Below are positions 58,601 through 61,600 of a stretch of DNA of 64,000 nt, piece after piece; positions within the stretch are counted from its first letter, which is position 1; each line of letters begins with the position of its first letter. Made by a program: the position numbers. The stretch lies in assembly GCF_965641715.1 (NCBI RefSeq), contig NZ_OZ282453.1; one strand, written 5' to 3'. The stretch comes from Escherichia coli (lineage in GTDB: Bacteria > Pseudomonadota > Gammaproteobacteria > Enterobacterales > Enterobacteriaceae).

Positions 58601-61600
58601 TAGAAGTGCTATCCGGCAGCTTCTTAATGAATCCAGTTCAAAGCCCTGTAAAGGAACAAGCCGCTTTTGCTGTAAAAAACGTTCGGCAAGAGTGACTAAT
58701 TTGCTTTGTTCCTGTTCTGTCAGACACGTTAAAAGAGGAATCGATAGTGCTTCCTGCCAGGGAAGGGCAGTTTGATGTGCTGATTCTTGTACTTTCCAGG
58801 GCCACTTAATCATCGTTTTGCTCGCAAACTCGTCACTTGAACAAAATTGCACGGACAGGGACTGTTAAAATGCCAAATTTCCTGGCATCATGGCAACCAT
58901 CTGAACGGAGAGATGCCGGAGCGGCTGAACGGACCGGTCTCGAAAACCGGAGTAGGGGCAACTCTACCGGGGGTTCAAATCCCCCTCTCTCCGCCACTTT
59001 ATCAATGACTTATCTCCCAACTTCCCGCCTTGCTTTTCCTAAACAGAACAATCGTAGAATATTCTTGAAGGGTTAGATCGTCACTGTTTTCTGTTCGATA
59101 CTGTGACATTCAGCACTTGATTCGCTATGGATCTGACAGGAAGCTTTCGAGCGAAAATGTGCAGTTATTCAGTCGTTTTCTTATCGCTCACCATTATTCT
59201 TTTAGACATTCATCCTATGAAACTGCCGCAAAGTTGGTGGTGGGAACTGAAGTTGCGTAGAGAAGGGGTCAAAAATTGAGTCAAAAAAGGAACGCGGCCG
59301 TCAGATTAAAGCCGCGGGACAAAGTCCATAATTTCCAAGAGTTGTTGAATTTCCCAGCTTTTTTGAAAGCCTTTGTATCATACTAACAAGTAAAAAAGGT
59401 TTAAATACCAAAATTAACCTGTATTTTTGATAAGTCTTACCATTGTACGATTTACACAGTTTCTGCTCCTCCTTGTTGATAGTGGAAAGGGTGCATTGTG
59501 CACTTGCGTAAACATTTATGACGCGTTGATGTCCATGGTTCACATTTCCTTGTCAGGGGATCGACTTATTTGCGGCGAGGCATCATTCGTAACAGAGTAT
59601 TATCTTTCTGAATGTAGTGATGAAAGAGTGCTGCGCCAGCGTGAGCTGCGATTAAAAAGTAGCCTATATTTGCCCAGGTTTCGTGAATATTTTTTATCAG
59701 TGCTTTAATTTCGCTGTTTGGGGTAACAAAGGGAGACACATTGAAACCAAGGAAACTCCACGATTTTCCACTGTAAGCCATCAAAGCAATCCCCAGCAGA
59801 GGAAGTGCAAGGAAGGTTATATAAAGCATGATGTGCATTAGCGAAGCCGCTTTCATTTGCCAGGCAGGTGGCGGTGGCACAATAGAAGGATCACTATAAC
59901 GGTGTTTTATAATCAGGCGTGAAAACATTAACACCCAAACGAATATACCCGCATTGTAATGTGTTTCTCGCATCAGCAGATAAGTACTACTACCTTTAGG
60001 AAACCAGCCACGGAGTTCCATCGCGGCATAGGTTATTGCAACGAAAAGCAGCGTTATCCAATGTAAATAAATTTGAGTTTTTGAGAATCGGTTCATTTTT
60101 GTAGCTCCTGTAATTTTCACAGTCAAGCTATCCCACGAACCTTAAAAATTCCTTATACAGATGTGGTTTTAAGAATTTGTTATTTAAAAAATTGATAGTG
60201 CACATTGTAACCAGCCAATATAAGCAATGGCGTGAGCACAGGTATCTTTCTCTGTTGGCCGTATTGTGTATGGAATCCGTTATTGGTTAACTCAATGCGG
60301 GTTAGCTTATTAATATACAGACACGTCATAGTGATGAGCGTGTCTGTAGCTCGCTTGCGTTCAGTGGCGTTTGTGGATGGACCAGTGGCAGTTATGATGA
60401 CTTACTAAAGCGGCATCGAGGCGTTATCATGAGAATACTCAATGAGACATCATTTCCTCGACCACTTCTTCGCTACTCAACTGATATGGATAATACGTTG
60501 GCCAGTTTTCCATTTCATTTAATAAAGATTGCTGTGAATCATTACCCATAAAAATGTGAAAATGAGATGGTTTTCGTGGTGCAATTATATGATCGCTAAA
60601 TTGTATATATTTAGGGGCTTTGCTTTCAGGATCTTTACATTCGAATAAGTAACGAACGCCTTTCTTGCCTGATTTATAGGTGAGTATTTTGTATCCATCG
60701 TAATCATATTTACAGGATGTTGTTTCATTATTTCTATGGAATTCAACAATGCCGTCCTCAATGCCAATCATCTCGATATCTGTTGCATAACCTTTGTGAT
60801 AATAATCTTTAATTTCAGCAAATGTTTTAGTTTTATCTGCATCCGCTTTCTTCTGAAAGACGGGGTCAAGTTTGCCACTTTGCAGTAAAGGATAAACGGA
60901 TTGCCAGACTCCATCCCAGTCACTGAGCGTTCGGTTTTGTACATTGGCATCATCAAAAACACCATTAGCAGCTTTTTGTTCGACCTCTGTTAAGGGTTTG
61001 CCGTGTGAGTGATGACCATGCGAAAAGGCAGGAGCGCTAACAATAAAGACACCTAAAGCAACAGCCAGTTTGTGAAGACGAATCGCCAAAACAGTTTCCT
61101 CCAGAGTCATTGTATATGATGTGTAATGTTATATTGTAACATATGACAAAATGCAACAACTCTTAGGAGATGAGAGCATAGTTTTCTCAGGTGTACTTAT
61201 CTATCTTATTGAAATAAAATGAATTATGTTGATAATTTGAGGTTGATGACAAACGAAACATAACCTGATGTGATCTGCGTAGGCCGGATAGGGCGCTCGC
61301 GCCACATCCGGCAGGGATAACGCGTACTTTGTCGGCAATATGAAGTTATACAGATAATTTGTTGTGAACCTGCTTGCGTAACCGGTTAAAAAGGGAACGC
61401 AACTTCTTATACCGTAAGGCTAAAAGCAGTACAGCCAGCCCAGCGTAGATGAGCGGCTGCGGTGAAATAATCTTCACTGACCACAGATAATGAATTGGGG
61501 CCAGGATCGCGACAAGATAGACGAAATTATGCAACTGTTGCCAGTGCTTGCCGAGTTTTCGCTGCATCGCCTGGGTTGAAGTAAACGCTAAAGCAAGCAA

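Follow-up and report, generated by a model that had tools for sequence, protein, structure and literature searches.

The window analysed here, a 64,000-nt stretch of Escherichia coli DNA, contains the 5' end of E. coli zinT together with its promoter; with a probability of about 0.93, we take this to be a gene repressed by Zur, initiated at UUG and encoding an exported protein. As we picture it, an adequate zinc supply would keep two Zur dimers loaded with the metal on a 20-bp box (61141..61122) that overlaps the putative -10 element and stops about 4 nt before the probable transcription start, and RNA polymerase would be excluded. When zinc becomes scarce, Zur would depart and transcription would rise by some three orders of magnitude, yielding an mRNA whose leader, some 29 nt long, bears a GGAGGA Shine-Dalgarno sequence. 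Ribosomes would then start at the UUG (61089) to make a 216-aa precursor, a 23-residue Sec signal peptide would be cut off before His24, and periplasmic ZinT would scavenge zinc for the ZnuABC importer. The elements involved are the following, with the evidence for each in brackets:

60439..61089, minus strand: zinT (yodA) coding sequence read from the TTG, 216 aa plus stop (ORF list; Pfam, NCBIfam and PDB matches; RefSeq coordinates)
61087..61089, minus strand: TTG initiation codon of zinT (Shine-Dalgarno duplex energy; alignment invariance; RefSeq start)
61097..61102, minus strand: Shine-Dalgarno GGAGGA, separated from the TTG by a 7-nt spacer, AACTGTT (sequence, duplex energy, alignment)
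61021..61089, minus strand: signal peptide, residues 1-23, with probable cleavage before His24 (n-region charge; PDB mature chains)
61108..61110, minus strand: upstream in-frame ATG, a strain polymorphism and not the start (no Shine-Dalgarno; allele counts)
61122..61141, no strand assigned: 20-bp Zur box, on the gene strand TGTTACAATATAACATTACA (exact pattern match; K-12 identity; position-weight matrix; published K-12 binding)
61128..61133, minus strand: putative -10 hexamer TATAAC, within the Zur box (5/6 consensus positions; 17 nt from TTGCAT)
61151..61156, minus strand: putative -35 hexamer TTGCAT (17-nt spacing to TATAAC; 3/6 consensus)

The identity of the gene is clear. The ORF (60439..61110, minus strand), which the ORF listing counts as 223 aa from the ATG, matches the Pfam family PF09223 ZinT (E=9e-85; 283.5 bits for a cutoff of 27) and the NCBIfam equivalog NF007639 (430.9 bits for a cutoff of 300), both above threshold, and it is nearly identical to PDB 1s7d_A, a 216-aa precursor that aligns over 216/216 residues with 2 substitutions. 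Relative to K-12 and 1s7d, the window protein carries one substitution within the signal peptide, His6 for Tyr6, and one within the mature part, Pro174 for Ser174. Its mature N-terminus is rich in histidine (HGHHSHG), and the product is ZinT (YodA), a periplasmic zinc-binding lipocalin-like protein. The gene stands where it does on other E. coli chromosomes, with yodB downstream and msrQ, msrP and hiuH upstream: the gene order is the same, the corresponding segment is annotated as zinT beside msrQ, the neighbourhood msrP-msrQ-zinT-yodB-tRNA-Ser is common to the window and to K-12 (zinT, yodA, b1973), and of the 5426 complete E. coli genomes searched by megablast, 5417 contain the zinT segment. 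The downstream side varies between strains: the window and K-12 both have yodB (a cytochrome b561 homologue; 59566-60126 in the window, minus strand), and it is absent from strains 504239 and S5, in which tRNA-Ser follows zinT directly with no yodB between them.

Read 5' to 3' on the gene strand, the region upstream of the coding sequence is TTGCAT-tttgtcata-TGTTACAATATAACATTACA-catcatataca-ATG-actct-GGAGGA-aactgtt-TTG-gcgattcgt. The earlier note had proposed that zinT starts at this TTG, behind a well-spaced GGAGGA; the features that it named are all present at the stated coordinates, on the minus strand, and several observations bear the proposal out. When the 16S 3' end is hybridised to the 17 nt that precede each candidate start, the duplex energy is -9.3 kcal/mol for the TTG vs +2.7 kcal/mol for the ATG, and a Shine-Dalgarno sequence is found before the TTG only. 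In an alignment of 13 sequences drawn from Escherichia, Salmonella, Atlantibacter, Enterobacter, Superficieibacter, Yokenella, Silvania and Serratia, the TTG lies within a string, TTTTGG, that does not vary, and the AGG/GAGG columns of the Shine-Dalgarno are conserved. Nor is a TTG start peculiar to E. coli: over 74 species-level zinT loci, the start with the best Shine-Dalgarno is TTG in 23, GTG in 8 and ATG in 43 (ATG being used in Buttiauxella, Pantoea, Yersinia, Providencia and Proteus), and 19 of the loci whose best start is TTG or GTG have no in-frame ATG candidate at all. Finally, RefSeq (PGAP) starts zinT at the TTG, with a 651-nt CDS, in 7/7 genomes examined (K-12, two strains with TTA at the upstream codon discussed below and four with ATG, including O157:H7), and the RefSeq CDS of one compared genome maps exactly onto 60439..61089 of the window.

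The N-terminal sequence fits the same start. Read from the TTG, the protein begins with a putative 23-residue signal peptide whose n-region, AIRLHK, has a net charge of +2 and whose cleavage context is AFS followed by HGHH; the crystallised mature chains of PDB 1oee (residues 24-216) and 5aq6 begin at ZinT residue 24, and Sec-dependent cleavage is thus predicted before His24. Because the signal peptide is removed, data on the mature protein are unable to tell a TTG from an ATG start. A search of the literature for an experimentally determined zinT initiation codon or a directly mapped transcription start found none, and a zinT or yodA entry was not found in the supplements to the TRAINSPOTTER N-terminomics paper. 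Comparative evidence, which we consider decisive, places the start of zinT translation at TTG 61089, and the TTG would be the sole start in ATG-allele strains as well.

The competing start is the ATG itself, and its weakness is best seen in its distribution. The codon at 61110, 21 nt upstream of the TTG, is TTA in K-12. Allele-specific 41-nt megablast queries, with the 28-nt seed made to span the codon, were run against 5426 complete E. coli genomes; 2460 of these (~45%) carry ATG and 2858 (53%) carry TTA, the TTA alleles forming two separate haplotypes (1442 and 1416 genomes). The ATG is absent at this position from every other species compared: E. albertii has ACA, a further Escherichia species has ATA, and Salmonella enterica arizonae has a stop codon, TAG. 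If an ATG-allele strain initiated at ATG 61110, the 216-aa protein would gain MTLEETV, the precursor would count 223 aa with a 30-residue signal peptide, and the TTG would be read internally, as leucine. ATG is after all the commonest of start codons, this one is in frame and, should +1 lie near 61118, probably belongs to the transcript (about +9), and the exact 223-aa protein is on record from 24 contigs (GenBank and Logan, vs 38 contigs for the 216-aa form), meaning that some pipelines do choose it. We nevertheless regard it as very improbable: the ATG lacks a Shine-Dalgarno, as its positive duplex energy indicates, and would be preceded by a leader of just ~8 nt; an extension whose first codon reads TTA in most complete E. 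coli genomes, and whose counterpart in relatives is ATA, ACA or TAG, cannot be required; its two glutamates would bring the n-region charge down to 0; and the alignment of the 223-aa form to the NF007639 model (214 positions) begins at residue 11, leaving the extension uncovered. The distance to the Zur box provides a further argument for the TTG. In the 57 loci with a recognisable box described below, the end of the box lies 21-49 nt (median 31) from the start codon; in the window it lies 32 nt from the TTG, a typical spacing, and only 11 nt from the ATG, outside the range. ATG 61110 was rejected as the zinT start on these grounds together (Shine-Dalgarno, alleles, charge, Zur-box spacing and model).

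Initiation at the TTG leaves room for a subtler role of the polymorphism. With +1 near 61118, the AUG would be on the transcript about 8 nt from its 5' end, and minor initiation in ATG-allele strains is conceivable: this 5'-proximal AUG, lacking a Shine-Dalgarno, might see low-level use or disturb initiation at the UUG, thereby tuning ZinT output or giving a minor 223-aa precursor. We consider this unlikely. If true, it would mean that a common natural polymorphism tunes ZinT output, or that a minor part of the precursor is the 223-aa form, whose signal peptide would be acidic and less competent for export.

The earlier note had also drawn attention to a palindrome in the zinT promoter, which it read as the Zur operator. 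This reading holds, but the palindromy itself contributes little. The palindrome, ATGTTATATTGTAACAT on the plus strand (61126..61142), lies mostly inside the Zur box at 61122..61141 and is imperfect, with perfect 6-nt arms (ATGTTA/TAACAT) that flank TATTG; by our own arithmetic (64000/4^6), about 16 such palindromes are expected per fixed spacer, and in place of the 17-nt palindrome a repeat search returned just a shifted 74% pair. Since it is short and imperfect, its palindromy alone was dropped as evidence and the weight rests on the match to the Zur motif. The structure-based 20-bp Zur pattern of Gilston et al. (PMC4219657), TGWNAYRWTATAWYRTNWCA, matches exactly at 61122..61141 and only there in the 64-kb window; when up to 2 mismatches are allowed, the window holds 3 sites vs 0.27 expected. 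The purine/pyrimidine skeleton RNNNYRNNRYNNYRNNNY is satisfied by GTTACAATATAACATTAC, as checked by hand, and the older 17-nt Zur core ATGTTATANTATAACAT fits at 61126..61142 with 1 mismatch.

Because the zinT operator itself contributed to the published pattern, an exact match is partly circular. Two observations address this: the 20-mer is identical in the window and in K-12, and it is recognised by a matrix that owes nothing to Escherichia. This position-weight matrix was built from 57 distinct boxes upstream of zinT, from non-Escherichia genera only, and the scan with a Zur matrix that the earlier note had suggested as a check gave its best score in the 64 kb, 25.6 bits, at 61119..61144. 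The runner-up, at 16.3 bits, is the zinT site again with its register shifted by 5 nt; an independent site follows at 12.5 bits, and the remainder of the window stays at or below 6.4.

Comparison across Enterobacterales points the same way. A Zur box with at most 2 mismatches is found upstream of zinT in 57 of the 74 orthologous loci (in Salmonella, Atlantibacter, Enterobacter, Serratia, Yokenella and others), amounting to a phylogenetic footprint, where the chance of such a box is 0.2% per shuffled upstream region; in the 13-sequence alignment, the invariant columns of the box read TGTTA.A.T.TAAC. Could the palindrome nonetheless be a chance AT-rich inverted repeat, or a site for another Fur-family or an unrelated regulator? 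Palindromes with 6-nt arms are indeed expected many times per 64 kb by the arithmetic given above, promoter regions are AT-rich, and an older report is said to tie yodA expression to Fur and SoxS, which we count in favour of another regulator. Set against this are the exact structure-based match over 20 bp, at a site class expected 0.27 times even with 2 mismatches; a box held at a constant spacing in 57 of the 74 species, which chance would produce at the 0.2% level; a matrix score far over the remainder of the window; and identity to the K-12 operator, which has the second-highest Zur affinity of the four operators tabulated (PMC4219657). An origin by chance or through another regulator is accordingly exceedingly improbable, and the comparative data support the assignment of the site as the zinT Zur operator.

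The footprint has its exceptions. In Serratia sp. DD3 and in some Morganellaceae (Proteus, Morganella, some Providencia), the 150 nt upstream of the start lack a close Zur box. In 12 zinT loci of Providencia, Morganella and Proteus, the box is either absent within 150 nt of the start or located 200-310 nt upstream, which suggests another promoter arrangement in these bacteria or co-transcription with an upstream gene. Within E. coli, strain 504239 carries an operator variant, TGTTACAGTATAACATTACA (~1765-1784 of its locus), in which an A-to-G change at box position 8 violates the W of the published Zur pattern.

How the operator works has been studied in K-12, by mobility shift and RT-PCR. On the K-12 Zur-zinT operator, electrophoretic mobility shift assays showed cooperative binding of two Zur dimers with a Kd-app of 0.053e-18 M^2, and zinT was repressed 984-fold in vivo, as judged from the wild type vs a zur deletion (PMC4219657). 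Given that the box is identical, Zur binding and zinc-dependent repression would carry over to the window, and the zinc-responsive control anticipated by the earlier note finds its basis in these published data. The window and K-12 share the 20-bp Zur box, the Shine-Dalgarno, the spacer and the TTG; they differ in the codon 21 nt upstream of the TTG (TTA in K-12 for ATG) and just upstream of the box, where two substitutions distinguish gctat (K-12) from gtcat (window). The other E. coli Zur operators (znuA/znuCB, ykgM-rpmE2/L31p and pliG) have the same recognition pattern, TGWNAYRWTATAWYRTNWCA or RNNNYRNNRYNNYRNNNY, on which Zur sits as a dimer of dimers, but they serve other target genes and differ in strength: the zinT and L31p operators bind Zur at least 100-fold more tightly and confer 560-980-fold repression, whereas znuC and pliG are repressed 7-8-fold (PMC4219657).

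The zinT Zur box has been located at -23..-4 relative to the transcription start, much like the znuC box at -22..-3 (PMC5916954), and this position puts +1 near 61118 in the window. At a suitable distance from it, TATAAC and TTGCAT are the likely -10 and -35 hexamers, and the sequence GTTGTTGCATTTT, in the -35 region, is conserved within Escherichia. A scan of 60900..61400 for consensus promoters returned unrelated upstream candidates only and did not list the TATAAC/TTGCAT pair; it missed the likely zinT promoter because the -35 is weak (TTGCAT, 3/6), and the scan was given no weight as evidence. A box that covers the -10 and ends near +1 would shut RNA polymerase out, and occlusion is therefore the mode of repression that we favour from the layout of the promoter.

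The TTG start and the Zur operator of zinT are already known and are textbook E. coli biology, and nothing in our interpretation is new: the membership of zinT in the four-operator E. coli Zur regulon is established and the TTG is the gene's reference annotation, so that the feature carries little scientific weight. Its practical use is as an annotation check. The earlier note had held that automated callers often miss the TTG, and this is true in part. Ab initio callers can add the 7-residue extension (223 aa) in ATG-allele strains, and the contigs that carry the 223-aa form attest that some pipelines do so; RefSeq, on the other hand, calls the TTG in all seven genomes, the four ATG-allele genomes among them. 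Judged by the comparative evidence, the 223-aa annotation would be wrong. The zinT promoter is also employed in zinc and calprotectin biosensors, by virtue of its control by Zur (PMC10410751), and an intact operator and start in the window strain are mildly useful in that regard.

Two further observations concern the surroundings of the promoter and the rest of the window. The second-best independent site for the Zur matrix (44741-44766; 12.5 bits, 2 mismatches to the 20-bp pattern) lies upstream of the yeeN ORF (43967-44683, minus strand). We know of no link between Zur and yeeN; the site may be due to chance in an AT-rich intergenic region and was not counted as part of the zinT feature. The stretch that separates the msrQ stop codon from the zinT promoter in the window also contains a REP-like inverted repeat, GCCGGATAGGGCGC / GCGCCACATCCGGC (61283-61312). 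In strain S5, a copy of IS1397 is present between msrQ and zinT, and homology to the window resumes at ~61297, the centre of the REP-like palindrome; IS1397 prefers REP units, and its location in S5 is consistent with that preference.
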